Positions 11,595 to 27,066 of a stretch of DNA of 64,000 nucleotides are shown here, in pieces (position 1 is the first letter of the stretch; each line of letters begins with the position of its first letter). The notes below the pieces were generated by a model that had not been told where the DNA came from, did no database searches, and saw only the letters and a list, made by a program, of their open reading frames with translations. Made by a program: the position numbers and the translations under genes. This DNA comes from a virus (lineage: Duplodnaviria; Caudoviricetes), in the IMG/VR virus record IMGVR_UViG_3300037067_007581, positions 1 through 64,000 of that record; one strand, given 5' to 3'.

Positions 11595-12782
11595 ATGAAA
11601 GTAATCTCAACAGAAAAAATACCAATTAAAATGTGGCTAGAAGAAATTGAAGACGGAGCGGTTGAACAAGCTAAAAACCTTGCTAATTTGCCTTTTGCTT
11701 TTAAGCATATTGCGATAATGCCAGATAGTCATATTGGCTATGGTATGCCTATTGGTGGAGTATTGGCTACAAAGGATGTAATTGTCCCAAATTCTGTCGG
11801 TGTTGATATTGGATGTGGAATGTGTGCCGTAAAAACTTCTTTGACCGAATTAGACACTCCAACACTTAAAAAGATAATGGGTGAAATTAGAAAACAAATC
11901 CCAGTCGGGTTTGGACACCATAAAGAAAAACAAGACGAGAACTTAATGCCTCGTATTCCGTTAGCAACAGAACCTATTGTGAATGAGGAATATAATTCAG
12001 CCTTAACTCAAATAGGAACTCTTGGCGGTGGTAATCACTTTATAGAAATTCAAAAAGGTTCCGATGGTTATATTTGGATAATGATACATTCTGGGTCAAG
12101 AAATCTTGGATTAAAAATTGCTAAGTATTATAATGATTTGGCTATCAAATTAAATAAGAAATGGTTTAGTGAAGTTGACCCTAAATGGGAATTAGCATTT
12201 TTACCTATTGAAAGTGATGAAGGTCAGGCGTATATCAGGGAAATGAATTATGCGGTTGAATTTGCTCTGGCTAATAGAAAATTAATGATGGACAGAATAA
12301 TGAAAATAATTTATGACACTATTGAAGTTTCTTCAGAAGATGGACAATTTGGTGGAGTAACTTTCGAGCCGATGATAAATATCGCTCATAACTATGCTCA
12401 AATGGAAAATCATTTTGGTGAGAATGTAATGGTTCATAGAAAAGGGGCGACACTTGCCAGAAAAGATACTATTGGGATTATTCCAGGGAGCCAAGGAACA
12501 AAAAGTTATATTGTTAAGGGTTTAGGTAATAAGGAAAGTTTTGAAAGTTGCTCTCACGGAGTTGGTAGAAAAATGGGCAGAAAAGATGCTGAAAGAAGAT
12601 TAAATTTAGAGGATGAGATTAAAATGCTTGACGACCAGGGAATTTTACACGCCATTAGAGGAAAAGCAGATTTGGATGAAGCACCTGGTGCTTATAAAGA
12701 TATAAAAACAGTAATGGATAATCAATCTGATTTAGTAGAGATATTAGTAGAATTAACTCCGTTGGGAGTTATTAAGGGGTAA
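11595..12782 (+). CDS. rtcB: RtcB RNA ligase
   Basis: MPDSH, VGVDIGCG, GTLGGGNHFIE, HSGSR, HNY, HRKGAT and DEAPGAYK motifs. Confidence 0.95.
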   Translation: MKVISTEKIPIKMWLEEIEDGAVEQAKNLANLPFAFKHIAIMPDSHIGYGMPIGGVLATKDVIVPNSVGVDIGCGMCAVKTSLTELDTPTLKKIMGEIRKQIPVGFGHHKEKQDENLMPRIPLATEPIVNEEYNSALTQIGTLGGGNHFIEIQKGSDGYIWIMIHSGSRNLGLKIAKYYNDLAIKLNKKWFSEVDPKWELAFLPIESDEGQAYIREMNYAVEFALANRKLMMDRIMKIIYDTIEVSSEDGQFGGVTFEPMINIAHNYAQMENHFGENVMVHRKGATLARKDTIGIIPGSQGTKSYIVKGLGNKESFESCSHGVGRKMGRKDAERRLNLEDEIKMLDDQGILHAIRGKADLDEAPGAYKDIKTVMDNQSDLVEILVELTPLGVIKG

Positions 12783-13311: not shown

Positions 13312-14136
13312 ATGGCTATTAGAATAAGAAAATTTGAAGCTAGTAATTATTACGCTATTCACTGTAAAGGAAAGACACTACGAATGACGTTAGACCCTAA
13401 AAAACCTATTACAGAATTAAAGTTTCCTGAGTTTTATGATATTAAAATCACGGGGTTTTGTGCAGGAAATTGCCTTTATTGTTATCAGAATTCAAAGAAG
13501 ACCAACCGCCATTATAAAAATATAATTGGCAAGACTAAAAAATTCTTTGGTAGGATGAAAGAAAATGAAAGGCCTTTTCAGGTAGCATTAGGGGGTGGTA
13601 ATCCAAATCAACATCCAGACTTTATAAAGTTATTAAAAACCTTTTCGGAAATGAATATATTGCCTAATTATACTACTAATGGAATGGGTTTAACTAAGGG
13701 AATTATAAAGGCAACTAAGACATATTGTGGGGGAGTAGCGGTTTCAACACATAGTCATTTAAAGGAAGTTTGGGAACGGGCAGTAAAAAAATTAGTTTTA
13801 AATGGTATTAAAACTAATTTACACCTTATTATTTCAGACCAGGATAGTATTGACCAATTTGTTAGTATCTATAAACAATGGAACTCTTTAATAGACTACT
13901 TTGTTTTATTGCCATATACCGCTAAAGGTAGAGCGGTAGTAAAGAAAATTGACTATGCTTATCTACGAAAAAGATTAAAACAGCTTGATTTAAGAAAAAT
14001 AGCTTTTGGGGCAAATTTTTATTCATTTTTAAGGAAATTTCATAAGGAGTTTAAAATTTCATTATACGAACCAGAAATATTGAGTAAGTATTTAGACTAT
14101 AAAGATATGAAAATTTATAAATCAAGCTTTAGCTAG
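13312..14136 (+). CDS. Radical SAM protein
   Basis: CAGNCLYC (CxxxCxxC), VALGGGNP and NYTTNG. Confidence 0.85.
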   Translation: MAIRIRKFEASNYYAIHCKGKTLRMTLDPKKPITELKFPEFYDIKITGFCAGNCLYCYQNSKKTNRHYKNIIGKTKKFFGRMKENERPFQVALGGGNPNQHPDFIKLLKTFSEMNILPNYTTNGMGLTKGIIKATKTYCGGVAVSTHSHLKEVWERAVKKLVLNGIKTNLHLIISDQDSIDQFVSIYKQWNSLIDYFVLLPYTAKGRAVVKKIDYAYLRKRLKQLDLRKIAFGANFYSFLRKFHKEFKISLYEPEILSKYLDYKDMKIYKSSFS

Positions 14137-14897: not shown

Positions 14898-15032
14898 AAG
14901 AATGAGCAATAAGGGTTAGAGAAGGAGTAATCTATGAGGCGAGAATTACAGAAATATAATAATCGTATTCAAAAGGCTAATATAATAGGAAAATGTAGGG
15001 TAATAAACTTTAATTATTAACTAAAAACAATT

Positions 15033-15197
15033 ATGACAAAGAAAAAGACTTTTTATCAAGTATCAGTAGCTTGCTCTAATTGTGGGTATAAAGGAAAGAT
15101 AGCTATTGGCTATGGTAACCCTGTAATGGGTCAGATATGCCCTAATTGCGGTTGCCAAAACTTGAGGAAAGTGGGAGTAAAAGAGGATATGTATTAA
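15033..15197 (+). CDS. Small zinc-ribbon protein (not in ORF track)
   Basis: Manually translated 54 aa with CSNC...CPNC. Confidence 0.6.
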   Translation: MTKKKTFYQVSVACSNCGYKGKIAIGYGNPVMGQICPNCGCQNLRKVGVKEDMY

Positions 15198-15221
15198 AAG
15201 AACTTTTGTAAATAATAAGTT

Positions 15222-15232
15222 TGTGTTATAAT
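15222..15232 (+). promoter_or_regulatory. Extended -10 promoter
   Basis: TGTGTTATAAT (TRTGn-TATAAT); the predicted start at about 15239 coincides with the 5' end of the structured RNA. Confidence 0.65.
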
Positions 15233-15238
15233 ATTAGA

Positions 15239-15392
15239 ATAAGTTTCTGAAAGCCCGAGAGGGTTAAGAATTAACCAATGCGCGGCAACAGTTTGGGAAA
15301 CAGCCTTAATCTTTGACTCCCGTGAGCGAGAGTTAAGGATTGGGCTTTCAGGAACTTATCTATTAAAAAATGGGGTCAAGTCAAGGAGTCAA
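15239..15392 (+). ncRNA. Putative riboswitch-like structured leader / ncRNA
   Basis: 20-bp closing stem 15239-15258/15340-15359 with G-U pairs; three internal hairpins; TTGACTCC 15313-15320 is complementary to SD-containing GGAGTCAA 15385-15392. Confidence 0.65.
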
Positions 15393-15395
15393 GTT

Positions 15396-15773
15396 ATGTT
15401 AAAAAAAATTATTAAAGTATGGCACACAGTCAAAGGTCACGATAAGTTCATAGAAAGTAGCACCTTAGAGGAATATGAGAAAGAGCTAAATCCTAACTAT
15501 TTTCATGGGTTGGGAGACTATTCATTCATTCAGTCCAGAATGAGTAAGTTATTAGGAATGGTTCTAACAGTTATTGACGCTTCAATATCCGACAAGGTTC
15601 AAAATAAAGCCATTAAGGATTTAATCAAAACAGACTTTGTAGAGGAATATGCTTTCCTTTCAGAGAGTTTAATTGACGACCAATACATTCAGGATGCACA
15701 AGAGGACGTAGCTTTGGAAGACTTGGGGGAAGTAGATGCGCTGGCGGTCGTTGAAGAAGACGCAAAACGCTAA
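15396..15773 (+). CDS. Hypothetical protein with acidic C-terminus
   Basis: ORF track; AAGGAG SD upstream. Confidence 0.65.
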   Translation: MLKKIIKVWHTVKGHDKFIESSTLEEYEKELNPNYFHGLGDYSFIQSRMSKLLGMVLTVIDASISDKVQNKAIKDLIKTDFVEEYAFLSESLIDDQYIQDAQEDVALEDLGEVDALAVVEEDAKR

Positions 15774-15813
15774 TTAATTAAACACTTTGACCCCAGTTTT
15801 AAATATATTAACT

Positions 15814-16332
15814 ATGGTAACAGGTAAATTTTCAATAATTTCAGCTAATATAGCTTTTGAAAAATTTTGTCCCATATTAGACGCTGATATAGATTTAAAC
15901 GACCGTGAAGGGCAAAAAATGTATGCTACTTGTTTATTTATTTTAATATTATCTTATTTAAAAGGTTTAGCTACTAATATTAAAAATACTACAGGAACAG
16001 TCCCTTTTATTCCAATGGGTTTAGTTCGTGGGAATATTTATTATCCCGAGCAGAGATTATTAGTATTAGATTATGAGTGGTTAGAAGTACAAGAAGAATT
16101 GATAGATTTAATTTTGGGTAAAATGTGTAATCCTTCCTTAACTTCTTTAAATTTGCCTTTATTCCCAGCAATTATTTTGACTAATAAAATAGGTAGTTTA
16201 ACTCACAATAAAGTAGAAGTTTATACCGAGGAGAGAATATATAGCAGAATGGAGACTCCAATTAAATTAAAAGACGGCACTTCTCCGCAAATGAAAGTAT
16301 ATTTAAAGAAATTCGGGGGAATTTATGTTTAA
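15814..16332 (+). CDS. Hypothetical protein
   Basis: ORF track; ATG 15814 preferred to TTG 15787. Confidence 0.5.
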   Translation: MVTGKFSIISANIAFEKFCPILDADIDLNDREGQKMYATCLFILILSYLKGLATNIKNTTGTVPFIPMGLVRGNIYYPEQRLLVLDYEWLEVQEELIDLILGKMCNPSLTSLNLPLFPAIILTNKIGSLTHNKVEVYTEERIYSRMETPIKLKDGTSPQMKVYLKKFGGIYV

Positions 16333-16417
16333 AAACTTTCTTAGTATATTTAGCATTATTATATTTGTCTTATTAAGTTTTCTTTTAGTACTAACTGTAT
16401 GTGGCTTTAAGTAAAAC

Positions 16418-16446
16418 TTGACAAAATAAAAAAGGTACTGTATAGT
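16418..16446 (+). promoter_or_regulatory. Sigma70-type promoter of the modification operon
   Basis: TTGACA 16418-16423, 17-nt spacer, TATAGT 16441-16446. Confidence 0.85.
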
Positions 16447-16460
16447 GCCTAATATAATAA

Positions 16461-16529
16461 AGGGCGTTCAACCCGTACCATTAAAAGGTCTGACTTTTTA
16501 ATTGGTGCTAGGAACGTCTTTTTATTTTT
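16461..16529 (+). promoter_or_regulatory. Structured leader / possible attenuator
   Basis: Outer GGGCGTTC/GAACGTCT stem, inner GTACCATTAAAAGG/CTTTTTATTGGTGC hairpin, then a T-tract. Confidence 0.55.
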
Positions 16530-16539
16530 ATATATATTT

Positions 16540-17265
16540 ATGAAAACAATTCAAAAACTTACAGTTAGCGAAATTTATGCAGGTATTACTACGGAAACTA
16601 TTAATTCAGGGGTACCTGCTATTTTTATTAGGTTGTCGGGACACAACTTGACTATAAAAAATGACCCTTACTCTTATACCTGGGATGAGAGCAATAAGGC
16701 AGTTGGATTACAGATGACCGCGAAAGATATAATTTTAGCTATTAGTAAATTAAAAGTTAAGACTAATCATTTAGTCATTACAGGGGGGGAACCTTTATTA
16801 CAAGACGCTGGTATTATAGAAGTTTTAAAAGAATATCAGTTTACTTTTAATAAAAAGCCTTTTGTAGAAATAGAAACCTGCGGGACTATTATTCCTAGTA
16901 AAGGTTTACAGACGTTGACAGATTTGTTTTCAGTTAATATTAAGTTAGCTAATTCTTTTTCTGGGTCTGCTAGAGATACCTTTTCTACGAGGATAAAGAA
17001 TAGTGTAATCAATTATTTTAATCAGAAAGACATAAAGTCTTATTTTAAATTTTATATTAAAGACATTGGAGATTCTTCAGAATTATTGGAATTAAAAAAG
17101 ATGTTTAAAATAGAGCTTAGTAGAATAGTATTAGTACCAGATGGCTTAAACTATACACAATTTATGAGAATATCTGGAGCAGTTTGGAACTTATGTATTA
17201 GTTCTGGGTTTAAATTTGCTATCAGAACCAAATTTTTAATTTGGGGAGATAAAAGAGGTTTATAA
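16540..17265 (+). CDS. QueE-like paralogue lacking the radical SAM CxxxCxxC motif
   Basis: VSEIY, PAIFIRLSG, VITGGEPLLQ, IETCGT and LIWGDKRG are retained; the Cys motif is replaced by HNLTIKND. Confidence 0.8.
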   Translation: MKTIQKLTVSEIYAGITTETINSGVPAIFIRLSGHNLTIKNDPYSYTWDESNKAVGLQMTAKDIILAISKLKVKTNHLVITGGEPLLQDAGIIEVLKEYQFTFNKKPFVEIETCGTIIPSKGLQTLTDLFSVNIKLANSFSGSARDTFSTRIKNSVINYFNQKDIKSYFKFYIKDIGDSSELLELKKMFKIELSRIVLVPDGLNYTQFMRISGAVWNLCISSGFKFAIRTKFLIWGDKRGL

Positions 17266-17284
17266 TAATTAATTTTTTATATCT

Positions 17285-17860
17285 ATGCTAAAAGTAGGAA
17301 CAATTAAAAAAATTATAATGCCTGAAGGAGTTTGGGCGGGTACTGCTTGTATCTTAGCCGATTTCACTGATGAAAGCGGTTTAGAAAAGGACTCGAATAC
17401 TATTATTGAAGAAATTTTAAAATTAGGCTTACGAAGTGTTTTGGTTAAAGGCATAGTTCGAGAAAGTCCAGAACTAAAAGACATCTTAATTGGGTTATCT
17501 ACTAAAGGTAAGGTTATTACCTTAGTAACAGAAGCTACGGACTTAGTAGAATTAATTAGGCCTTTAAAATATACTAGGGTATTTATGCGGTTACCTATTC
17601 TGGGTATAGAAGAAGCTAAGATTGAGTTGCGTAATTTGCCTCTAATGAAAGATGACGATGAAGTTAAAATTATTATCAAAAGTAAAGAAGATTACGCAGG
17701 TGCTAAAACATTTTTAAAAAATAGGTTAATGACACGCCCAACAATTTTATTTTATTTATCTAGCGATTTAGAAAATCCAGAAGAAATTATTAACCAGTAT
17801 TTAGAGGATTGTGGCAAGTTTATCTTTAAGAGCCGTATAATTAATGCTTATACTAAATAA
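17285..17860 (+). CDS. Second degenerate QueE-like paralogue
   Basis: MLKVGTIKKIIMPEGVWAGT resembles the QueE N-terminus; IIEEILKLG and DEVKIIIKSKEDYAGAK resemble the QueE core; the Cys loop is absent. Confidence 0.55.
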   Translation: MLKVGTIKKIIMPEGVWAGTACILADFTDESGLEKDSNTIIEEILKLGLRSVLVKGIVRESPELKDILIGLSTKGKVITLVTEATDLVELIRPLKYTRVFMRLPILGIEEAKIELRNLPLMKDDDEVKIIIKSKEDYAGAKTFLKNRLMTRPTILFYLSSDLENPEEIINQYLEDCGKFIFKSRIINAYTK

Positions 17861-17870
17861 ATATCCTATT

Positions 17871-18287
17871 ATGAAAGCTAAAAATATCAGTTGGAATAAG
17901 CTAGTTAGAGACATGAACTCTTTATCCGACTTAATTCCAAAGAATAAATTTAAAGCTATTTTGTGTATAACTAAAGGGGGTTTAATTCCTGCTTATTACT
18001 TAGGCAAGAATTTAGGCATTTCAGTTATTGAGACAATGGGTTTAAAATCCTATCACGGCACTAAGAGAGGAAATATTGAGCTGAAGAAACTGCCTGTTAT
18101 TAAAGATTCTTCAACCTTATTAATTGTTGACGACCTAGTGGATAGTGGAGCTACACTTCAATATGTTAAAAAGTATTTTAAGAAAGCCAAGACGGCGGTA
18201 ATTTATAAAAAACCCACCAGTACTTTTGAGCCTACTTATTGGTTATCAGAACAAAAAGGCTGGGTTAATTTTCCTTATGAAATCTAA
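17871..18287 (+). CDS. Purine phosphoribosyltransferase (Gpt-like, type I PRT)
   Basis: ILCITKGGLIPA, LLIVDDLVDSGATL (PRPP-binding) and WVNFPYE. Confidence 0.88.
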   Translation: MKAKNISWNKLVRDMNSLSDLIPKNKFKAILCITKGGLIPAYYLGKNLGISVIETMGLKSYHGTKRGNIELKKLPVIKDSSTLLIVDDLVDSGATLQYVKKYFKKAKTAVIYKKPTSTFEPTYWLSEQKGWVNFPYEI

Positions 18288-18831
18288 TAGAGAAGAACTA
18301 ATTAAACAGTTATTAGACACTATTCCTAATGAAGACTCTAGCAGAGAGGGTCTGCTTAAAACTCCAGAAAGAGTATCCAGAATGTATGATGAAATATTTT
18401 CTGGATATGAAGCTAGAGAAGAAGAATTATTTAAATCCGTATTTTTTTCTGATAATGAGGAAATGGTGGTGGTTCGAGATATAGACTATTATTCTCAATG
18501 TGAACATCATATGGTTCCATTCTTTGGTAAGGTTCATATTGGTTATATTCCAGAGGGTAAAGTTTTAGGGCTTAGTAAGTTTGCCAGATTAGTTGAGGTT
18601 TATGCCAGAAGGCTTCAAATACAAGAACAAATGACTTTTCAGATAGCTTCTGCTATTGAAAAGCACCTTAATCCGAAAGGTTTAATTGTAGTGGTTACCG
18701 GAACCCATTTATGTATGTGTATGCGAGGAGTAAAGAAGGCTAATGCCGTTACTATTACATCAGCTGTTCGAGGGTGCTTTAAGAATGATTTAGGTGTTAA
18801 AGAAGAATTTTTGAAATTAATTAAAATATAA
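18277..18831 (+). CDS. folE: GTP cyclohydrolase I
   Basis: TPERVSRMY, CEHHMVPFFG, GLSKFARLV, QIQEQMT and HLCMCMRGV. Confidence 0.95.
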   Translation: MKSNREELIKQLLDTIPNEDSSREGLLKTPERVSRMYDEIFSGYEAREEELFKSVFFSDNEEMVVVRDIDYYSQCEHHMVPFFGKVHIGYIPEGKVLGLSKFARLVEVYARRLQIQEQMTFQIASAIEKHLNPKGLIVVVTGTHLCMCMRGVKKANAVTITSAVRGCFKNDLGVKEEFLKLIKI

Positions 18832-18833
18832 TT

Positions 18834-20252
18834 ATGTGTTCTATTAATGGTGTTATTAAATTAAAAGGGACTTTAAACCAGGGAGAATGGTTAAAGTTTT
18901 CGGAAATCTGCAAAAAAGGTTCTTTTCGAGGTAGGGATAGTTTTGGCGTAGAGGCTTTCTATGACAGGGGGTTTAGTGCTTTTTCAGAAAGAAGGATAGG
19001 CAATAATAGGGTAATGTCTGTAATGAATTTAGAAAAATTTAAGGAAGGTATTAAAGTTGCTATCAGTAATAATCGAGCAGAGCCTACTACGGAATATGTT
19101 TTAAATAAAAAGGAAAGCGATGTTCAGCCGTATAGTTTTTCTGGTTACCATAAATATTGTAATAGGTATTGGGTAGTTCATAATGGTACTATTGCTAATG
19201 ATAAACAGTTAATTAAAAAATATAATTTCTCTACCCCCAGTAAAATAGATTCTGCTGTAATAGCTCCTTTATTGGATAAGAAGTGGACAAGTAAGGGTAG
19301 TTTAAGGCAGTTAGCTAATATTTTAAGCAGAGAAGTTTTAGGTTCCTATGCTTTTGCTATTTATGATAGATTTACTCCAGAGGCGTTATATTTAGCGGTA
19401 AATTATAAACCATTATTTTTAGAAAAAGTTGGAGATACTATTTATTTCACTAGTCTAAAAGAATTTTTTGGTAAAGAAAGTAATCAGCTATTAGCTAGTA
19501 ATATAGTTCAGATACCACCATATTCTGCAGTAAAGATTAGTGATTCAGGTATTGAAGTTATTAATCTTAGGAAACCTAAAAAAAAGAAAACTGCTTTAGT
19601 GGTGTGTTCGGGGGGTTTAGACAGTACAGTATCCGCGCAAGTAATGAAAAACAAAGGATATAAAGTAACCCTATTACATTTTCAGTATAATTGCCGAGCG
19701 GAATCTAGAGAAGTTCAGGCGGTAAAAGAAATTGCTGAGGCAATGAAAGTGCCTTATTGGTTTATAACTACTGATATTTTCAGCAAAGTAATTAAGCATA
19801 GTCCTATTTTAGATAAAAAGAAACCTGCTGTAGCTAAGATGGATAAGGGAGTAGAATTAGCATATGAGTGGGTTCCTGCTAGGAATTTAATTATGCTTTC
19901 AATAGCTACTGGAATAGCGGAAGCGTACGGGTTTGATAAAATAGTTCTAGGTAATAATTTAGAGGAATCTGGTGCTTATCCAGACAACGAGGCTATTTTT
20001 ATAGAAAAATTTGCTGAGATATTGCCTTATGCTGTGAATCTGAATAAAGAAATTCAGATTGAAATGCCTGTGGGTAACTTAATGAAACATGAAATTATTA
20101 AATTAGGTATCCGAGAAAAAGCACCTTTAGATAAAACCTGGAGTTGCTATGATAACGGAATTTTACATTGTGGAGTATGTGGCCCTTGTCGTATGCGTAA
20201 GGTGGGTTTTCAGATGAATAATATTAAAGACAGTATTAATTATTTAAAATAA
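18834..20252 (+). CDS. queC: Glutamine amidotransferase-QueC fusion (Gat-QueC)
   Basis: Ntn class II GATase (MCSING, NNRAEP, VHNGTI, DS) fused to QueC (VCSGGLDST, VPARN, YPD, SCY...CGVCGPC). Confidence 0.92.
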   Translation: MCSINGVIKLKGTLNQGEWLKFSEICKKGSFRGRDSFGVEAFYDRGFSAFSERRIGNNRVMSVMNLEKFKEGIKVAISNNRAEPTTEYVLNKKESDVQPYSFSGYHKYCNRYWVVHNGTIANDKQLIKKYNFSTPSKIDSAVIAPLLDKKWTSKGSLRQLANILSREVLGSYAFAIYDRFTPEALYLAVNYKPLFLEKVGDTIYFTSLKEFFGKESNQLLASNIVQIPPYSAVKISDSGIEVINLRKPKKKKTALVVCSGGLDSTVSAQVMKNKGYKVTLLHFQYNCRAESREVQAVKEIAEAMKVPYWFITTDIFSKVIKHSPILDKKKPAVAKMDKGVELAYEWVPARNLIMLSIATGIAEAYGFDKIVLGNNLEESGAYPDNEAIFIEKFAEILPYAVNLNKEIQIEMPVGNLMKHEIIKLGIREKAPLDKTWSCYDNGILHCGVCGPCRMRKVGFQMNNIKDSINYLK

Positions 20253-20255
20253 AGT

Positions 20256-21071
20256 ATGCCCTCAAAGAAAATAGCTATTATTGGTATTGGAGGAGTTGGT
20301 AAAGAGCATATTCGAGCGGCTAGGAATTTAGGTTTAGAAATTATTGGCGTTGATAATAACTTAGAAGTACTACGGGAATATGAAAATGTATTTTTCCCAA
20401 CTAAAACAATAGTTAATAAATGGGGCAAAGTTGAGGAGAAGTTTGAAATAGAACCTTTTAAATTATACACTGATTTATTTTTTGTTCCAGAATATGATTA
20501 TGCGGTTATAGCCACCCCAACTTTTACACACCAGGTTATATTAGATTCAATTTTTAATGATAAACCGGTACTGATTGAAAAGCCTATGAATATAGATTGG
20601 AATTTACTTTCTTGTAATATTCCTAGTCGTGTCTTTGGCGGTTATACTTATGCCTGTTTAGACTTAAAGAAAAAACCCGTTAAAGAGCATACTTTTGTTT
20701 TAACAGTAGATGACCATTATAATAGCCAGACTTGGAGAGCCGATAGCACACCTGCTGAAGACTTAATACCACATTTACTGGCTTTAGGGGCAGTCTATTT
20801 TAAGCAAGATTCTATTAAATTACTATCTATACAGAAGTTTAAAAATAGCGCTATGCTTGAGGTGCTGTATGGGGAAACAGATAAAGCTATCTTAATAGGT
20901 ATTTATGGCAAAGACGGCCATAACCTAACAATAAACGGTAAAGGAATACCAATAAACTATGAGGAGTTATTTACTAAACAATTAAAGAAGTTTATTTCAG
21001 GAGAGAAGCAGACTTATTTACAAAATATAGAAAATTTTTATGCTACACATCTTAAAAGCACCAGAGTATAG
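20256..21071 (+). CDS. Gfo/Idh/MocA family NAD(P)-dependent oxidoreductase
   Basis: IAIIGIGGVGKEH, AVIATPTFTH and VLIEKP. Confidence 0.8.
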   Translation: MPSKKIAIIGIGGVGKEHIRAARNLGLEIIGVDNNLEVLREYENVFFPTKTIVNKWGKVEEKFEIEPFKLYTDLFFVPEYDYAVIATPTFTHQVILDSIFNDKPVLIEKPMNIDWNLLSCNIPSRVFGGYTYACLDLKKKPVKEHTFVLTVDDHYNSQTWRADSTPAEDLIPHLLALGAVYFKQDSIKLLSIQKFKNSAMLEVLYGETDKAILIGIYGKDGHNLTINGKGIPINYEELFTKQLKKFISGEKQTYLQNIENFYATHLKSTRV

Positions 21072-22041
21072 GGGAAGACCAGAACCCTTAATTAATCAAG
21101 CTATAATTAAAACGGCTATTGATAGGGGGATAGATTTTCTAACCTATGACATTACGAGACCCAATTCAGAAGTTGAGACTGTGGGTTCTTGTTATAATAA
21201 TGATAAAACTGTTAGAGGTCAGATAATCCAATTCCAAAACTTTATATTTAATTTTGAAGAAGGAGATGATGTACTATGCTTAGAAGGTTTTAATCCTGCA
21301 TTATTATTCCTACCTTTAATGGCTAAAAAGACCGGGAAAGTTGGTGTTCTTTATCATTCCTCAACTGCTATTTCCGCAGACGCATATTCAAATAATTATC
21401 CTGTTTCTGAAATGGAAAAAGGCATATCAAATTTATCAGATGTTATCTTTTGTGCAACACAATATATTTCCGATAAAATCAAAAATTGTGAACCTAGTGC
21501 TAAAACTTTGGTAACAGGTTTGCCTTTTGACACTTTAAATGAAGTTTTTGTTTTAGCTAGAAAGAAAGAGAAGAAAGATGTTGTTATATTTAATCATCGA
21601 TGGGCTAATGATAAAAGACCAGAAATGTTTTTAGAGTTAGCTAAAAGGTTCCCAAAATACCAGTTTATAGTTTTAACTCCTTATGAGAATGTAATTTCTC
21701 AGGTTATTAAAGATAGGAAATCTAATAATGTAATAGGGAAACTATGTCGGACAAGAATAGACTATTTTAAAGAGCTGTCAGAAGCAAAATATATATTCTC
21801 AGCAGCAGAATTAGAAACTTTTGGTTATTCTGTATTAGAAGGAGTAGCTTGTGGGGCAATTCCGATTCTAACTAATACCGCTTGTTATAATGAGTTATAT
21901 CCTTTACAGTATTTGGGGGATACGGTTAATGACCTTGCTAGAATAATGAATGAAATTAAAGTATTCGACAGCTTTATATTGAAAAATTTAGAAAAATATC
22001 GTTATTCATCAGAGAGAATCTTAGACTTCTTTAATAAATAA
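21040..22041 (+). CDS. GT-B (GT4-like) glycosyltransferase
   Basis: VIFNHRW..DKRPE and ELETFGYSVLEGVACGAIPI (E-x7-E). Confidence 0.8.
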   Translation: MLHILKAPEYRGRPEPLINQAIIKTAIDRGIDFLTYDITRPNSEVETVGSCYNNDKTVRGQIIQFQNFIFNFEEGDDVLCLEGFNPALLFLPLMAKKTGKVGVLYHSSTAISADAYSNNYPVSEMEKGISNLSDVIFCATQYISDKIKNCEPSAKTLVTGLPFDTLNEVFVLARKKEKKDVVIFNHRWANDKRPEMFLELAKRFPKYQFIVLTPYENVISQVIKDRKSNNVIGKLCRTRIDYFKELSEAKYIFSAAELETFGYSVLEGVACGAIPILTNTACYNELYPLQYLGDTVNDLARIMNEIKVFDSFILKNLEKYRYSSERILDFFNK

Positions 22042-22046
22042 GTTTT

Positions 22047-22949
22047 ATGAAATTATTTTTAGTGGTAAGTCCAATTAAGAAGTATATGACTACAATACGA
22101 AATAGCGATGTTAAGAATATCTTAATTTCATATTTTTATTGGAAAGATGTTAAACCCCCTGAATTATTAGACTTTTTTAAGGAAATGCAGTCTAAGGGGG
22201 TTACTATTTTCCTAGATTCAGGAGCATTTACTTTTATTAATCAGCAAAGGAAGAATAAGCAGTTAGTAGCTAAAGATAAACTGACAGAATATTTTTTTCA
22301 GTTTACTAATGACTATATAGGTTTTATTAAGCAGTATTATAATTATATTGCTGGTTACGCTGAAATGGATGTAGACACAGTAATTGGGTTTCAGAAAGTT
22401 TTAGCGTTAAGGAATTTATTTCCTCAAGAAATATTACCAAAATTAATCCCAGTATATCATCCTGAAACTAGAACAATGGAGGATTGGAAACATGACTGTA
22501 ATAACTACCCTTTTGTTGCTTTAGGTTCTAAGACAGGTAGTACAGAAATGAGCTATTATAAAACTATGACTAAATATCCATATCAGAATGGAAATAAAGT
22601 TCATGGATTTGCTTTAGTAAACCAGACTATATTAAAAAAGTATCCTTTTTATTCAGCAGACAGTTCTTCTTGGATGTCTTGCAGTAGATATGGGCAATTA
22701 ATGGTATTTGATAAAGCTTTAGGCAGATTAGTTCAATTTCATTACCGGAATAGAGAAAAAATATTAAAATATTTGCCCACTATAATGAAATATGTTCCTA
22801 ATTTTAAAGAGATGTACGAAAGAGAGGGTGTTCAAGGTAGGATAAGTAGAATAGAACGATTAAAAGTAACTGCTTCTTCTTATAAGGAATTAGAGGAATA
22901 TTTGACTAGAGTATGGGAACGTAAAGGCATTACTTGGTCAGAGGATTAA
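22047..22949 (+). CDS. dpdA: DpdA-like 7-deazaguanine DNA transglycosylase (TGT fold)
   Basis: IFLDSGAFT, YAEMDV, LIPVYH, VALGS, KVHGFA and YSADSSSW; located within the queC/folE locus. Confidence 0.8.
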   Translation: MKLFLVVSPIKKYMTTIRNSDVKNILISYFYWKDVKPPELLDFFKEMQSKGVTIFLDSGAFTFINQQRKNKQLVAKDKLTEYFFQFTNDYIGFIKQYYNYIAGYAEMDVDTVIGFQKVLALRNLFPQEILPKLIPVYHPETRTMEDWKHDCNNYPFVALGSKTGSTEMSYYKTMTKYPYQNGNKVHGFALVNQTILKKYPFYSADSSSWMSCSRYGQLMVFDKALGRLVQFHYRNREKILKYLPTIMKYVPNFKEMYEREGVQGRISRIERLKVTASSYKELEEYLTRVWERKGITWSED

Positions 22950-22965
22950 CTATTAATTATATACT

Positions 22966-23130
22966 ATGCCTAAAAAATTAAATCATCGAGAAAAATTACG
23001 TTTAGCCAGAAGGTTACGAAGAACTGATGAAATAGAAAGGGGTATTCCACCTTTTGATTGTAGTGGTTGGAGTCATAGAAGGAATGAAATTTCAAAACGT
23101 GTTTCTAAAAAATTAAAACATAAGAAATAA
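22966..23130 (+). CDS. Small basic protein (not in ORF track)
   Basis: MPKKLNHREKLRLARRLRRTDEIERGIPPFDCSGWSHRRNEISKRVSKKLKHKK. Confidence 0.55.
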   Translation: MPKKLNHREKLRLARRLRRTDEIERGIPPFDCSGWSHRRNEISKRVSKKLKHKK

Positions 23131-23133
23131 CCT

Positions 23134-23838
23134 ATGGAAATAAAAAATATTTCACTCGAACAAATTAAGCCTAATAAATATAATCCGAATATAGTACCAG
23201 ATAAAATAATGGGGCAACTAAAGAAGTCTATTCAGAGAGATGGTTTTTTACAGCCTTTAATAGTCCGAGAAAGTCCAACAGAACCAGGTTTTTATGAGAT
23301 TATTGATGGAGAACATCGCTGGAAAGTCCTTTCAGATTTACCCGATTATAAAGAAGCTCCTTGTTTAGTAATTAATAAAGACGACAACTTATCTAAGATT
23401 CAGACTATTAATTTAAATAAACTACGCGGAGAATTTGATAGTATTAAATTAGCAGAGGTATTAGTTAGCTTGAAGAAGATTTATTCTGACGAGGAGTTAG
23501 AGGAAATGCTTGGTTATACTAAAGAAGAAATCCAGGGTTATGAAGAATTATTGACTTTTGACTTTGATAGCTTTAAAAAGGAAGATGAAGTTGATGTTAG
23601 TGAAGCTATTAAAGACCCAGAAATGTCGGAAGAGATGAACTTAATGCTAAATGATAAGCAATTAATCATTATTACCGCAACACTAGAATTAAAAGATATT
23701 AATAGTCGGGAAGAATCTCTTTCAGATATTTGTAAGGAATATTTACAAAAATTATACCCTGAAAAATGGGCAGATGTAGAGAGAAGACTACAAGGTTTGG
23801 AAACTCCTTTAAAAACTACAGAGACGGAAGTACTTTAA
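23134..23838 (+). CDS. ParB/Srx N-terminal domain protein
   Basis: IKPNKYNPN, SIQRDGFLQPLIV and YEIIDGEHRW. Confidence 0.85.
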   Translation: MEIKNISLEQIKPNKYNPNIVPDKIMGQLKKSIQRDGFLQPLIVRESPTEPGFYEIIDGEHRWKVLSDLPDYKEAPCLVINKDDNLSKIQTINLNKLRGEFDSIKLAEVLVSLKKIYSDEELEEMLGYTKEEIQGYEELLTFDFDSFKKEDEVDVSEAIKDPEMSEEMNLMLNDKQLIIITATLELKDINSREESLSDICKEYLQKLYPEKWADVERRLQGLETPLKTTETEVL

Positions 23839-23841
23839 AGG

Positions 23842-23886
23842 TTATCCCCCCAAAAACTTGACAAAGTTAAAAAACTATCTTATAAT
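23842..23886 (+). promoter_or_regulatory. Sigma70-type promoter with degenerate DnaA-box-like site
   Basis: TTATCCCCC 23842-23850, TTGACA 23858-23863, 17-nt spacer, TATAAT 23881-23886. Confidence 0.85.
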
Positions 23887-23892
23887 ACTTGT

Positions 23893-24192
23893 ATGGAATT
23901 AAAAAAGTTTATAACACTAGAATCCTTAAACGAATTTTTAAAAACCGCCAAGAATGTAAAGAAGGTAAAACTTCTGACAGAGGGCGGAGAGGAGTTGAGA
24001 CATTTTAAATTAATAACTGTTTTTTATGTCTTATTTGACAATGAAGGGGAATACCAAAAGAATATAGAAGATATAGGTTTTGTTAAACCTAATAAAGGGA
24101 AGCCTTCTTATAAAGAAATAATTGACCAACCTATTAAGGACGATAAATATTTTCAAGAACCCGATGGTTCCAGTATAGGGTTACCATTTTAA
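23893..24192 (+). CDS. Hypothetical protein
   Basis: ORF track. Confidence 0.5.
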   Translation: MELKKFITLESLNEFLKTAKNVKKVKLLTEGGEELRHFKLITVFYVLFDNEGEYQKNIEDIGFVKPNKGKPSYKEIIDQPIKDDKYFQEPDGSSIGLPF

Positions 24193-24210
24193 TTATTAAA
24201 TAAAAACATT

Positions 24211-24429
24211 ATGGCGTTTAAAGAGTTCTTTCAAGGTCATAAAAAGCAATTTAAAAAAGACCAAGAAGAGTTGAAGGGTAAGGCAAAAGATTTTCAGAAA
24301 GAGTATGAAGCAATTTGTGATAAATATGGTTTAGAATTAGCAGTTGGTTTAGATTATCAAAAGCATGGTATTTTTCCTAAAATAGAATTGATTAAGAGGC
24401 AGGGCATTGAAAAACCTATTAACGTTTAA
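24211..24429 (+). CDS. Hypothetical protein
   Basis: ORF track. Confidence 0.5.
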   Translation: MAFKEFFQGHKKQFKKDQEELKGKAKDFQKEYEAICDKYGLELAVGLDYQKHGIFPKIELIKRQGIEKPINV

Positions 24430-24447
24430 TTATTAATATATAAAATT

Positions 24448-24723
24448 ATGGGAGATGAAGTTAAAACCAAATTGCCTTCTTCCGGAATTTCTATTGCCGG
24501 ATTATGCTTAGGCATTACTTCATTATTGCTGTTTTGGGTTCCAATAGTACACTTCATAGTAATGGTTTTAGGTGTAATATTTGGTTCAGTAGCAATAAGT
24601 AGAAAGCAAAGATTTGGCGTAGCTGGTCTAGCGACATCTTTGGGTAGTGAGGTACTAGCCATCGGTTACTTTTTAGTCATTATCTACATTTCAGCGGCTA
24701 CTGCTTATAATATGCCAGTATAG
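24448..24723 (+). CDS. Small membrane protein (DUF4190-like)
   Basis: SIAGLCLGITSLLLFWVP..GVIFGSVAI..GVAGL pattern with multiple TM helices. Confidence 0.55.
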   Translation: MGDEVKTKLPSSGISIAGLCLGITSLLLFWVPIVHFIVMVLGVIFGSVAISRKQRFGVAGLATSLGSEVLAIGYFLVIIYISAATAYNMPV

Positions 24724-24799
24724 AATTTTAAAAGGTAGTAAACGAGAGTAATTAATTTTACTTTTCGTTTACAGTATGTTTATTCCTAATTAAAATCTT

Positions 24800-25036
24800 A
24801 TGTCTCCAGATACATTAATCATAGCTACTATCAACGGCACTACTCCTATTGCTTTATATGGCAATATGAATGAAATGAATAATCTTTTTTCAGAGGCTAC
24901 GAAGGCTTTTTATGATAAACAGAAGAGAATAAAAGAATTGTTTACTAAGCGAGGGGAAGAATATTTAGAAGAAGCTGTTCAAAAAGTTGAGTTTAGCTTT
25001 CCTATCATTACTGAGTCTTTAAAAAATAAGCTTTAA
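24800..25036 (+). CDS. Hypothetical protein
   Basis: ORF track. Confidence 0.5.
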   Translation: MSPDTLIIATINGTTPIALYGNMNEMNNLFSEATKAFYDKQKRIKELFTKRGEEYLEEAVQKVEFSFPIITESLKNKL

Positions 25037-25040
25037 TATT

Positions 25041-25466
25041 ATGTTTAATATCTCAAAAGAAATAACTTTTGAAGCAGCACACCGACTGCCAAATCATCAA
25101 GGTCTTTGTAAAAATATACATGGGCATCATTATAGAGTTGAAATGGAAATACAAGGTGACAAGTTGGAGGAAGGACAAGGGTTCTTAATTGACTTTTCTG
25201 AAATAAGAAGAAAGACCGAACAATACTTTCATCGTTTTGACCACGCTTGTATATTGTGGCTTAAAGACCAAATAATAATTCAAGCATTAGACAAATTAGG
25301 AATGAAGATAGCTGAAATGCCTGAAATACCTACTGCCGAAAATATGGCGAAAATGTTTTTTAATGATTTATCAGAAATATTAAATACAAACGATATTAAT
25401 TTATCGGCTATAACTGTTTGGGAAACCCCAACAGGCAAGGCTACTTACTCAAACATAAACTTATGA
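25041..25466 (+). CDS. queD: 6-carboxy-5,6,7,8-tetrahydropterin synthase
   Basis: FEAAHRL, CKNIHGHHY, RFDHA, PTAENMA and VWETP. Confidence 0.93.
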   Translation: MFNISKEITFEAAHRLPNHQGLCKNIHGHHYRVEMEIQGDKLEEGQGFLIDFSEIRRKTEQYFHRFDHACILWLKDQIIIQALDKLGMKIAEMPEIPTAENMAKMFFNDLSEILNTNDINLSAITVWETPTGKATYSNINL

Positions 25467-26236
25467 CATTAGGAACCACAAGTTATACTAATGCTAATTT
25501 TTTAAGAGTTGCCAAAATGCCTGATGGAACTCCAGAGGTATATCAAGCAGTTCAGGGAGAAGGTATTTCAACGGGCAAGCCTATGGTAATTGTTCGTTTA
25601 GCTTTATGCACGTTAAAGTGTTCTTTTTGTGATTCCAAATATACACATCAGTTTGAGGGGGGGAATAGAAATTTTGAGGCCTACGTAGTTAAGATGTCTA
25701 TTCCAGAATTAGGAGACTTAATAGAAAAGACCAGGGGAAATCATAAAAATGTAATGCTGACGGGAGGAGAACCTTTATTTCAGCAGGTTACTTTGATTTT
25801 ATTAATGGACTACTTGAATAATACTTATGGTAAGGGTTGGAATTTTGAAATAGAAACTAATGGTACAATCGTTCCTGTAAAGCCCTTTTGGAAAAGAGTA
25901 GGTTTAATTACTTGTTCACCTAAACTCGCCTCTAGTGGCAATACAGAGGCAAATAGAGATATACCAGAGGCTATTACTGCTTTATTAAAGGTGAAAAAGC
26001 CAGTTTGGTTTAAATTTGTTATCTCTAACAGTTGGGCGCAAGATTTACAGGAGATAAAAGATTGGCAGGATAAATATCGTGTTCCAAATAATAGAATCTA
26101 CTTAATGCCAGAAGGTATTGAGCCAAAAGAAGTAATTACTAATGGGAAAATAGTAAATGAATTAGCTATCAGACATGGTTATTTAGCTTCAAGTCGTATT
26201 CAGGTTTTAATTTATGGAAATCGAAGAGCAATTTAA
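25463..26236 (+). CDS. queE: 7-carboxy-7-deazaguanine synthase (intact radical SAM)
   Basis: VQGEG, CTLKCSFCDS (CxxxCxxC), LTGGEP, IETNGT, CSPKL and YLMPEG; ATG overlaps the queD TGA. Confidence 0.93.
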   Translation: MTLGTTSYTNANFLRVAKMPDGTPEVYQAVQGEGISTGKPMVIVRLALCTLKCSFCDSKYTHQFEGGNRNFEAYVVKMSIPELGDLIEKTRGNHKNVMLTGGEPLFQQVTLILLMDYLNNTYGKGWNFEIETNGTIVPVKPFWKRVGLITCSPKLASSGNTEANRDIPEAITALLKVKKPVWFKFVISNSWAQDLQEIKDWQDKYRVPNNRIYLMPEGIEPKEVITNGKIVNELAIRHGYLASSRIQVLIYGNRRAI

Positions 26237-26250
26237 ACTTAAATTTTTTT

Positions 26251-26460
26251 ATGCTAGGTTATGTTGGATTAACATTATTGGTATCCTCTTATATTTTACT
26301 AGTAACGAAATACAGCAAATGGTTTATTCCAATTGATATTTTAGCTAGTGTATTATTGGCAGTTCATGCTTATTTAATTCAAGACCTGCCTTTTTTATTA
26401 GTTAATAGTTTAATTTCAGGTTTTTTACTTATAAAATTATTACAAAAGAAATATATTTAA
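26251..26460 (+). CDS. Small three-TM membrane protein
   Basis: Hydrophobic 69 aa with PFLLVN motif. Confidence 0.55.
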   Translation: MLGYVGLTLLVSSYILLVTKYSKWFIPIDILASVLLAVHAYLIQDLPFLLVNSLISGFLLIKLLQKKYI

Positions 26461-26461
26461 T

Positions 26462-27064
26462 ATGGAAGAAACAAAAGAATTGACAATTCAAGAACCTAAT
26501 AAGTCTACCGCAGGTAGAAAATCAATTCCTTTAAGCCTGTTGAAAGAGCGTAGGAAATACGAGGTCAGTTTAAAGCTGACTGGTTTAAGTACTTCTGCTA
26601 TTCAGAAGCAGGTTAATTCTCAAGCAACCGTTAAAGGTTGGGGTACTGTTGGTATTGCTACTATTAATAAAGATATTGCCCATCATTATTCTAAAACTAG
26701 AGTAATTGAAACTAAAGATTTTGATTACATGAGTAATCTTAGAGAGGCTATGCTAGCGCAAATGGAGGTAACTATGGAAAAGATGTCTATTCATATAATT
26801 AAAAATAAGAGCTGGAAACCTTTTCAGTATGAAGACGCTTTAGAGAAATTACACAAAATGCAGATGGATTATGTAGAGATACAAAACTGGAATTTAAGCA
26901 AGAAAAACATAATGAATTTTATTCAGAATAATATCAATACGGTTTATGATGAGGGGTCAAGAGAATTAAGAAAAGCGCCTCCCGAAGCTATCCAAAAATT
27001 AGCAGGCTATCTTGATGAAGTTATTGAAAAGATAGAAAAGGGCGTGGTAGAGGAGGAAGAATAA
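26462..27064 (+). CDS. Probable terminase small subunit
   Basis: HTH-like N-terminus plus helical body; immediately upstream of the large terminase. Confidence 0.6.
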   Translation: MEETKELTIQEPNKSTAGRKSIPLSLLKERRKYEVSLKLTGLSTSAIQKQVNSQATVKGWGTVGIATINKDIAHHYSKTRVIETKDFDYMSNLREAMLAQMEVTMEKMSIHIIKNKSWKPFQYEDALEKLHKMQMDYVEIQNWNLSKKNIMNFIQNNINTVYDEGSRELRKAPPEAIQKLAGYLDEVIEKIEKGVVEEEE

Positions 27065-27066
27065 TT

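Follow-up and report, generated by a model that had tools for sequence, protein, structure and literature searches.

Why would an uncultured phage place two queE-like genes without a cluster site at the head of the operon by which it replaces DNA guanine with 7-deazaguanine, with an intact queE further along the same gene run? This question is raised by a 64,000-nucleotide stretch of phage DNA (hereafter the window), which is the first 64 kb of the 86-kb IMG/VR virus record IMGVR_UViG_3300037067_007581 and has a GC content of ∼31%. In an initial annotation, made from the letters alone, two adjacent open reading frames (ORFs) of the window, ORF1 (16540..17265, 241 aa) and ORF2 (17285..17860, 191 aa), which like all other operon features given below lie on the + strand, had been read as QueE paralogues without the Fe-S cluster motif. 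Radical S-adenosylmethionine (SAM) enzymes are defined by their cluster-binding cysteines, and to our knowledge conserved, selected relatives of these enzymes that have no cluster are rare. Here we show that ORF1 and ORF2 are genuine proteins with a QueE fold and no cluster site, that they are under selection and that they travel as a pair; they are QueE-family scaffolds that fail the defining features of their family. Given established radical-SAM chemistry, the absence of a cluster site means that neither ORF can carry out the 7-carboxy-7-deazaguanine (CDG) synthase reaction. The reading that we favour, with a probability of about 0.45, is that the two proteins form a non-radical heteromer, which would act as an accessory or ligand-handling module.

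Both frames were found at full length and free of internal stops, and every motif that had been picked out in them is present: IFIRLSGHNLTIKND, ITGGEPLLQ, IETCGT and IWGDKRG in ORF1, and PEGVWAGT and DEVKIII in ORF2. ORF1 has two cysteines in total (C114 and C219), and in alignments with canonical QueE sequences its triad positions are occupied by H35, I39 and D42, which bears out the reported absence of the cluster cysteines. It additionally carries ExETxG and KLxNS motifs and the C-terminal WGDKRG. The ORF1 model (predicted local distance difference test, pLDDT, 90.8; 48-sequence alignment) matched Bacillus subtilis QueE (PDB 5th5) with a Foldseek template modelling (TM) score of 0.79 and a Z-score of 22.6 (root-mean-square deviation, rmsd, 2.7 over 223 aa), followed by the QueEs of Escherichia coli (Z 19.3) and Burkholderia multivorans (Z 18.4) and by pyruvate formate-lyase activase (Z 16.4). 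For the ORF1 and ORF2 models alike, QueE entries outranked all other radical-SAM enzymes. At the sequence level ORF1 is recognised by phrog_2076 (E 3e-28) and stays under the curated cut-offs of TIGR03963 (51.5 bits versus 260) and Pfam Radical_SAM (19 bits versus 29.5). Searched as a single sequence, ORF1 retrieved canonical QueEs alone, none above 35% identity, and at 90% identity it is a singleton.

Further copies were obtained from metagenomic phage contigs, referred to here as loci L002 to L013 (L002 equals L004, L011 and L091, and L007 equals L092). L002 supplied a second cysteine-less copy, which is 36% identical to ORF1, reads GTNLEDRND and is directly followed by an ORF2 homologue. 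Recruitment with a profile of three cysteine-less proteins gave members scoring 196-437 bits, versus at most 166 bits for canonical QueEs, and the recruited group was triad-less except for P0152, which keeps the triad. The recruited cysteine-less proteins and two copies from viral loci together constitute the clade of 19 that we call 'QueEx1'. In a maximum-likelihood tree these 19 proteins are monophyletic (Shimodaira-Hasegawa-like approximate likelihood ratio test, SH-aLRT, 99), the cysteine-keeping P0152 is their sister (94), and their terminal branches are similar in length to those of canonical QueEs. Because of this monophyly, the cysteine-keeping sister and the canonical-like branch lengths, we infer that the cluster cysteines were lost once, long ago, in the ORF1 clade. 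The intact QueEs of the window, L011 and L012 form a clade of their own (SH-aLRT 99), apart from that of ORF1, and ORF1 is therefore no recent copy of the phage's working queE. The word 'paralogues' thus holds in the sense that the ORFs are QueE relatives, and fails in the sense of recent copies of the phage's own intact gene.

In E. coli QueE, the substrate is bound by Q13, E15 and R27, the cluster by C31, C35 and C38, and Mg by T40, and SAM is contacted by G94, S136 and Q189 (PMC11142719). Comparison of the 19 clade members with 35 canonical QueE sequences showed the cluster-cysteine triad (CxxxCxxC or Cx14CxxC) in 35/35 canonical sequences and in 0/19 clade members. In most of the latter the three cysteines have become T, D and D, and the Asp-Thr after the third cysteine is variable. 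The substrate Gln is replaced by K in 13/19 members and the substrate Glu by S, T or another residue, likewise in 13/19. Also altered are the Ser-Pro of the SPK motif, whose serine is mostly N and is probably the equivalent of E. coli S136, the lysine in FKFV and the Q189 position, where M has become K/R. The clade retains the R27-equivalent arginine (19/19), ExETNG, R151 and R229. The window ORF1 is among the least derived members, having kept E19, F29, K170 and the WGDKRG tail. At the positions of E. coli Q13, E15, R27 and T40 it has T17, E19, R31 and Y44, so that the Glu and Arg are kept and the Gln and Thr are lost; in its SAM region GGE is present, the Q189 position holds V, and the SPK serine is N.

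ORF2 is the more divergent of the two proteins. It has no match in Pfam or PHROG, a BLASTP comparison with ORF1 was not significant, and neither was an hhalign comparison of the single ORF2 sequence with a QueE alignment; a search of PDB sequences with the ORF2 profile returned no QueE. It matched the short QueE type NCBIfam TIGR04349 over residues 30-175 (E 1.2e-7; 31.7 bits versus a cut-off of 300). Among 1.84 billion representatives, 66 homologues were found at E ≤1e-3, nearly all of them 180-220 aa long, which we refer to as the 'QueEx2' family. Aligned as a family against the QueE alignment, ORF2 gave an hhalign probability of 97.6% (E 2.8e-12, 185 columns); in this alignment the entire cysteine loop is deleted, in agreement with the earlier remark that ORF2 lacks it, and TGGEP is cut to G...PE. 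The question whether ORF2 has a QueE fold at all, which had been singled out as decisive, was thus put to a profile-profile comparison and a structure model, and the fold was found. The model (pLDDT 94.4, 51 homologues) had B. subtilis QueE 5th5 as its top match (Z 16.0, rmsd 3.1, 183/191 residues), with E. coli QueE (Z 14.5), B. multivorans QueE (Z 13.2) and pyruvate formate-lyase activase (Z 12.8) next, and the ESM Atlas model of ORF2 matched QueE clusters with TM 0.80-0.82. It is the TIGR04349 match, the family profile and the fold that establish the homology of ORF2 to QueE, and by its sequence ORF2 resembles the short TIGR04349-type QueE. Of the functional residues it keeps only the Glu of QGEG; the arginine, GGE and the loop are lost, and D26 stands at the Arg position.

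The nearest ESM Atlas clusters of ORF2 by language-model features are 'hypothetical protein' entries of ∼217 aa, mostly from Gemmatimonadota, and cluster-less QueE-like proteins may, going by such matches, also occur in bacteria. In BFVD, the viral structure closest to the ORF2 model was A0A8S5S940 from Myoviridae sp. ctByu2 (TM 0.86 by query, E 4e-9). At 372 aa this protein is twice as long as ORF2, and it may represent a QueE-type domain fused to another domain.

Both ORFs thus share with the crystallised QueEs (5th5/5tgs from B. subtilis, 6nhl from E. coli and 4njg from B. multivorans) a fold that extends over their whole length. They differ from them in having no cysteine triad and no Mg-binding Thr and in scoring far under the curated cut-offs; moreover, the Gln/Glu pterin contacts are lost in the ORF1 clade, and ORF2 also has neither GGE nor the arginine. 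One could suppose that they are nevertheless radical-SAM enzymes whose cluster is held by other ligands. Cysteines at new positions do occur in the ORF1 clade (C10 in 79%, C29 in 42% and C219 in 100% of members), and 8/19 members share all three. The window ORF1, however, has S10 and F29, so that C219 is the only one of the three among its two cysteines, and its Radical_SAM score lies under the cut-off as given above. In ORF2 the loop is gone and its two cysteines are not conserved, the family having no conserved cysteine column and 6/51 members without any cysteine. We therefore regard an alternatively ligated cluster as very improbable.

A different alternative is a new, non-radical catalytic role for ORF1, ORF2 or both, with the QueE pocket reused for polar reactions at the carboxylate of a pterin or a 7-deazaguanine. 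Such an enzyme might carry out SAM-dependent transfer onto the CDG or 6-carboxytetrahydropterin (CPH4) carboxylate, or a step in glycosyltransferase-linked hypermodification. The SAM-binding GGEPLLQ is found in 19/19 members of the ORF1 clade (P85 is A in one), next to the invariant arginine, and the title of PDB entry 5th5 names a 6-carboxypterin-5'-deoxyadenosyl ester in B. subtilis QueE, so that a polar SAM adduct is possible in the pocket. The clade also has conserved residues of its own at the former cluster site (T35, D39, D42 and K/R199), and in the ORF2 family D125 is invariant and G19, R92 and P152 are nearly so. In radical-SAM enzymes, however, it is the cluster that anchors SAM, and the cluster is gone in both proteins; two further SAM-region positions, those of Q189 and the SPK serine, are changed in the clade, and ORF2 is without GGE and the arginine. 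An acidic residue at 39 and a basic one at 199 occur together in 12/19 clade members, while the window ORF1 and its nearest relatives combine I or N at 39 with V at 199, and this pattern could merely reflect the filling of an empty cofactor site. On balance we hold new non-radical activity to be plausible, though less probable than the heteromer. A narrower form, in which the pair would be a new non-radical enzyme complex on a radical-SAM scaffold that is needed for an undescribed DNA base, seems to us somewhat more doubtful again. This complex might perform an undescribed pterin or 7-deazaguanine step, for example carboxylate activation or transfer, or priming of the base for glycosyltransferase-linked hypermodification.

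Proteins that have lost a catalytic site may also simply be on their way out. Decay of duplicated genes would fit the isolated position of ORF1, a singleton at 90% identity that is at most 35% identical to every QueE. To set against this, approximate dN/dS ratios (nonsynonymous to synonymous substitution rates; Nei-Gojobori) between L012 and L013, at ∼80% protein identity, were 0.109 for the ORF1 counterpart and 0.091 for the ORF2 counterpart, with 0.090 for the downstream purine phosphoribosyltransferase (PRT), 0.130 for ParB and 0.094 for QueD. No frameshift or stop was seen in ORF1 or ORF2 counterparts at any locus examined, the two families count 19 and at least 66 full-length members, respectively, and gene order is conserved. 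The initial annotation had argued for retention and had named neutral evolution with frequent frameshifts as the contrary outcome; what we find among the homologues is purifying selection without frameshifts. The selection and synteny data lead us to reject decay, which we consider the least probable of all readings. ORF1 and ORF2 are accordingly pseudoenzymes in the sense of enzyme homologues that have lost catalytic residues and whose genes are under purifying selection.

The two genes also stay together. An ORF1-type gene directly precedes an ORF2-type gene in the window, L002, L003, L005, L012 and L013, and at least five distinct phage contigs from metagenomes have the pair at the start of a deazaguanine operon, usually with PRT and FolE next. 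Locus scans and tblastn gave the common order ORF1-type, ORF2-type, (PRT), FolE, ..., a GT1-type glycosyltransferase (GT1), DpdA, ParB, ..., QueD, ..., intact QueE, terminase; all of it is present in the window, L002 and L012, and part of it in L003, L005, L006 and L013. PRT follows the ORF2 counterpart in L003, L005, L006, L007, L012 and L013, and not in L002. Among 80 viral loci with a QueE-type gene, an ORF2 homologue adjoined that gene only in the three with a cysteine-less QueE. In L007 an intact QueE (CNLCCNYCD) occupies the slot of ORF1 and is followed by ORF2-type, PRT and FolE genes, and in the window, L002 and L012 the downstream intact QueE is co-resident with the pair. Against deposited phage genomes, tblastn gave no ORF2 match at E 0.01, and its hits with ORF1 and the protein P0144 were all canonical QueEs of no more than 35% identity. 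Viral contigs scanned with ORF1, ORF2, P0139 or P0144 as single queries returned no match.

The pair accompanies two kinds of downstream chemistry. In the window, L005 and L006 it occurs with Gat-QueC, a fusion tied to 2'-deoxyarchaeosine (dG+), and in the window and L006 with an oxidoreductase as well. In L002 (3409-3750), L012 (7515-7877) and L007 (9564-9929), FolE is followed by proteins of 113-121 aa, unrecognised by Pfam, that contain HRW..AP and LxxxHRHxF; the window has Gat-QueC and the oxidoreductase at that place. LxxxHRHxF is the signature of DpdL, a QueD paralogue in which it replaces CxxxHGH and which is proposed to be a CDG decarboxylase (PMC10516641), leading to 2'-deoxy-7-deazaguanine (dDG). 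Since the pair is found with both chemistries, its role probably lies upstream of, or is common to, the Gat-QueC and DpdL branches.

The same distribution bears on the possibility that ORF1, ORF2 and PRT form a module that is independent of the phage's own deazaguanine synthesis, and that would salvage or sequester host purine or 7-deazapurine bases or act as a counter-defence ligand sponge. Presence of the pair beside either chemistry would suit such a module, and the three genes are intact in two lineages that have lost pathway genes. In L013, a TnpB/IS605 OrfB gene (L013:2674-3771) stands in place of the FolE-GT1-DpdA of its sister L012, and a GNAT-QueE segment is missing before the terminase (L013:6007-7255), so that the intact QueE is absent; the counterparts of ORF1, ORF2, PRT, ParB and QueD are intact. 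In L003 (1207-1727) a 59-aa N-terminal remnant of FolE adjoins a 121-aa C-terminal remnant of DpdA, with ORF1, ORF2 and PRT intact; either a deletion has run through the modification genes, or this 2-kb contig is misassembled. Against an independent module, these deletions may be recent and the L003 contig possibly misassembled, PRT is absent from L002, and PADLOC gave no match. We judge it improbable, although less so than a retained cluster or decay.

The initial annotation had listed heterodimer partners or scaffolds, ligand sensors and non-radical catalysts as roles, among which the computational analysis did not discriminate; the heteromer that we favour would be a pseudo-dimer of ORF1 and ORF2 built on the dimeric architecture of QueE. 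QueE is a homodimer in its crystal structures, and adjacent homologous genes commonly encode heteromers. In the history that we envisage, an ORF2-type protein would first have been the partner of an active QueE, an arrangement that would persist in the L007 lineage. Catalysis would then have been taken over by a second QueE adjoining QueD, after which the upstream QueE could shed its cluster, its Mg site and most of its pterin contacts and be kept for the partnership. An upstream copy that was freed by the second QueE and retained as a partner would explain why the cysteine loss is ancient, single and stable. Such a heteromer might bind an adenosyl ligand or a base, either a pterin or a 7-deazapurine, and hand it over to the phosphoribosyltransferase, to CDG-modifying enzymes or to DpdA.

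There are precedents for parts of this proposal. Eukaryotic tRNA-guanine transglycosylase is a heterodimer of QTRT1 and QTRT2 (PMC10164549), in which QTRT2, a homologue of a queuosine-pathway enzyme, is catalytically dead and has been retained as the partner, as the model favoured here would have it for ORF1/ORF2. Its fold and reaction are unrelated to those of QueE, however, and the ORF1:ORF2 heteromer is here a proposal from gene adjacency. The E. coli QueE, as a cell-division regulator, demonstrates that a QueE scaffold is able to act without catalysis, since the R27A variant is dead for queuosine synthesis and still blocks septation (PMC11142719). Unlike ORF1 and ORF2, the E. coli protein keeps its cluster and activity, and its septation effect needs an enterobacterial surface region. 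DpdL, finally, is a further paralogue from the 7-cyano-7-deazaguanine (preQ0) pathway that is encoded in phage deazaguanine operons and has a changed catalytic motif, and DpdL-like genes share operons with ORF1/ORF2 counterparts in L002, L007 and L012. It has a T-fold and not a radical-SAM fold, its activity is only proposed, and the window has no DpdL; as DpdL is a QueD paralogue, we rejected a DpdL identity for ORF1 or ORF2. Our literature search found no paper on cysteine-less QueE homologues.

Several points weigh against the heteromer. No ORF1-ORF2 fusion occurs among the 66 ORF2 homologues. L013 and L003 keep ORF1, ORF2 and PRT despite a deleted or truncated FolE and DpdA, a hint that the CDG pathway of the phage itself may be dispensable for the pair. 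The strictness of GGEPLLQ and R31 in ORF1 fits a ligand-using enzyme as well as a scaffold. In addition, dS is close to saturation (0.9-1.0 for ORF1/ORF2 and 1.5-2.0 for PRT, ParB and QueD), which makes the dN/dS ratios approximate, and the independent loci number only about six.

Expression of dpdL with dpdA in E. coli gave no dDG, and the authors suggested that further enzymes are possibly required (PMC10516641). We speculate that an accessory factor still missing from phage 7-deazaguanine modification could be supplied by the ORF1/ORF2 pair, which accompanies both the Gat-QueC (dG+) and the DpdL (proposed dDG) chemistry. The pair also offers a tractable case of a radical enzyme scaffold that has been repurposed.

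In the window the same-strand gene run comprises ORF1, ORF2, PRT, FolE, Gat-QueC, oxidoreductase, GT1, DpdA-like and ParB-like genes, then several small ORFs, QueD and the intact QueE, and finally packaging genes. The Gpt-like PRT (17844..18287; Pfam Pribosyltran, E 1.3e-11) matches the NCBIfam xanthine PRT NF006613 with E 7e-31, under its curated cut-off. It shares its first 17 nt with the end of ORF2, and FolE (GTP cyclohydrolase I; 18226..18831; Pfam E 1e-71, TIGR00063 above cut-off) begins within PRT; these overlaps suggest that ORF2, PRT and FolE could be translationally coupled. Next is the fusion of a glutamine amidotransferase with QueC, Gat-QueC (18834..20252; QueC E 1e-54, GATase_7 E 1e-10), an architecture tied to dG+ (PMC6884629, PMC10516641). 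It is followed by a GFO/IDH/MocA-type NAD-binding oxidoreductase (20256..21071; Pfam E 1.9e-10), also found in L006, and a GT1/GT4-type glycosyltransferase (21040..22041; Pfam Glycos_transf_1, E 1e-6) with counterparts in L002, L006, L007 and L012, of which L002 additionally has a GT2. The position of these two genes between Gat-QueC and DpdA (20256-22041) suggests a sugar-decorated deazaguanine as a putative product.

The DpdA-like DNA transglycosylase (22047..22949; phrog_887 'queuine tRNA-ribosyltransferase', E 4e-33) has counterparts in L002, L007 and L012. Further downstream lies a ParB-like protein (23134..23838; ParB_N, E 1e-13). DpdB of the bacterial Dpd system is a ParB-like ATPase without which DpdA does not insert the base (PMC10164549), and by analogy the ParB-like protein of the window is a possible DpdB equivalent. 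QueD (CPH4 synthase; 25041..25466; Pfam PTPS, E 1e-32) is followed by the intact QueE (25418..26236; Radical_SAM 37.3 bits versus a cut-off of 29.5, phrog_2076 E 3e-50), which carries the triad in CTLKCSFCD and lies 8 kb downstream of the pair, just as had been noted; its true start codon may lie further downstream than 25418. FolE, QueD, QueE, Gat-QueC and DpdA are the gene set tied to dG+ in phage 9g (PMC6884629, PMC10516641).

The placement of the pair at the operon head, which the initial annotation had proposed, agrees with a promoter-like site (TTGACA-17-TATAGT, 16418..16446) ahead of ORF1, a consensus match only, with 11 of 12 positions agreeing. The TTGACA box, after an A-rich run, is conserved upstream of the ORF1 counterparts in L002, L005, L012 and L013. 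Between this site and ORF1, folding predicts a stem-loop in the 5' leader (16459..16521), with a U-rich run behind it, 18 nt ahead of the start codon. The 63-nt hairpin has a minimum free energy of -28 kcal/mol (z -3.9), and 0/200 shuffled sequences were equally stable. Shorter hairpins with other stem sequences are located at the same place in L002 (1440-1493), L012 (5150-5197), L013 (790-838) and L005 (3285-3326), and the 5' arm of the leader hairpins begins at a purine-rich, Shine-Dalgarno-like run. RNAalifold gave no consensus structure over the leader hairpins of these loci, and the window hairpin had no Rfam match, nor had any other part of 15000-27500. From its predicted fold and position, the hairpin could be a split Shine-Dalgarno device or a regulatory element.

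Beyond the operon, the window encodes a DNA polymerase, a helicase, RtcB, a terminase and a portal protein, and no deposited phage has a large terminase more than 32% identical to that of the window. Upstream of the operon are the RtcB-type RNA ligase (11595-12782) and, as a separate gene, one resembling radical-SAM/Fe-S oxidoreductases (13312-14136). The AT skew reverses its sign between 32000 and 42000, where the GC content also rises to 0.37-0.38 from ∼0.31 elsewhere. Among the related contigs, the family A DNA polymerase of L007 (3771-6998) contains an intein, and a 1303-aa terminase ORF in L013 (7255-11166) matches the window terminase in three separated pieces, which suggests that putative inteins are present there too.

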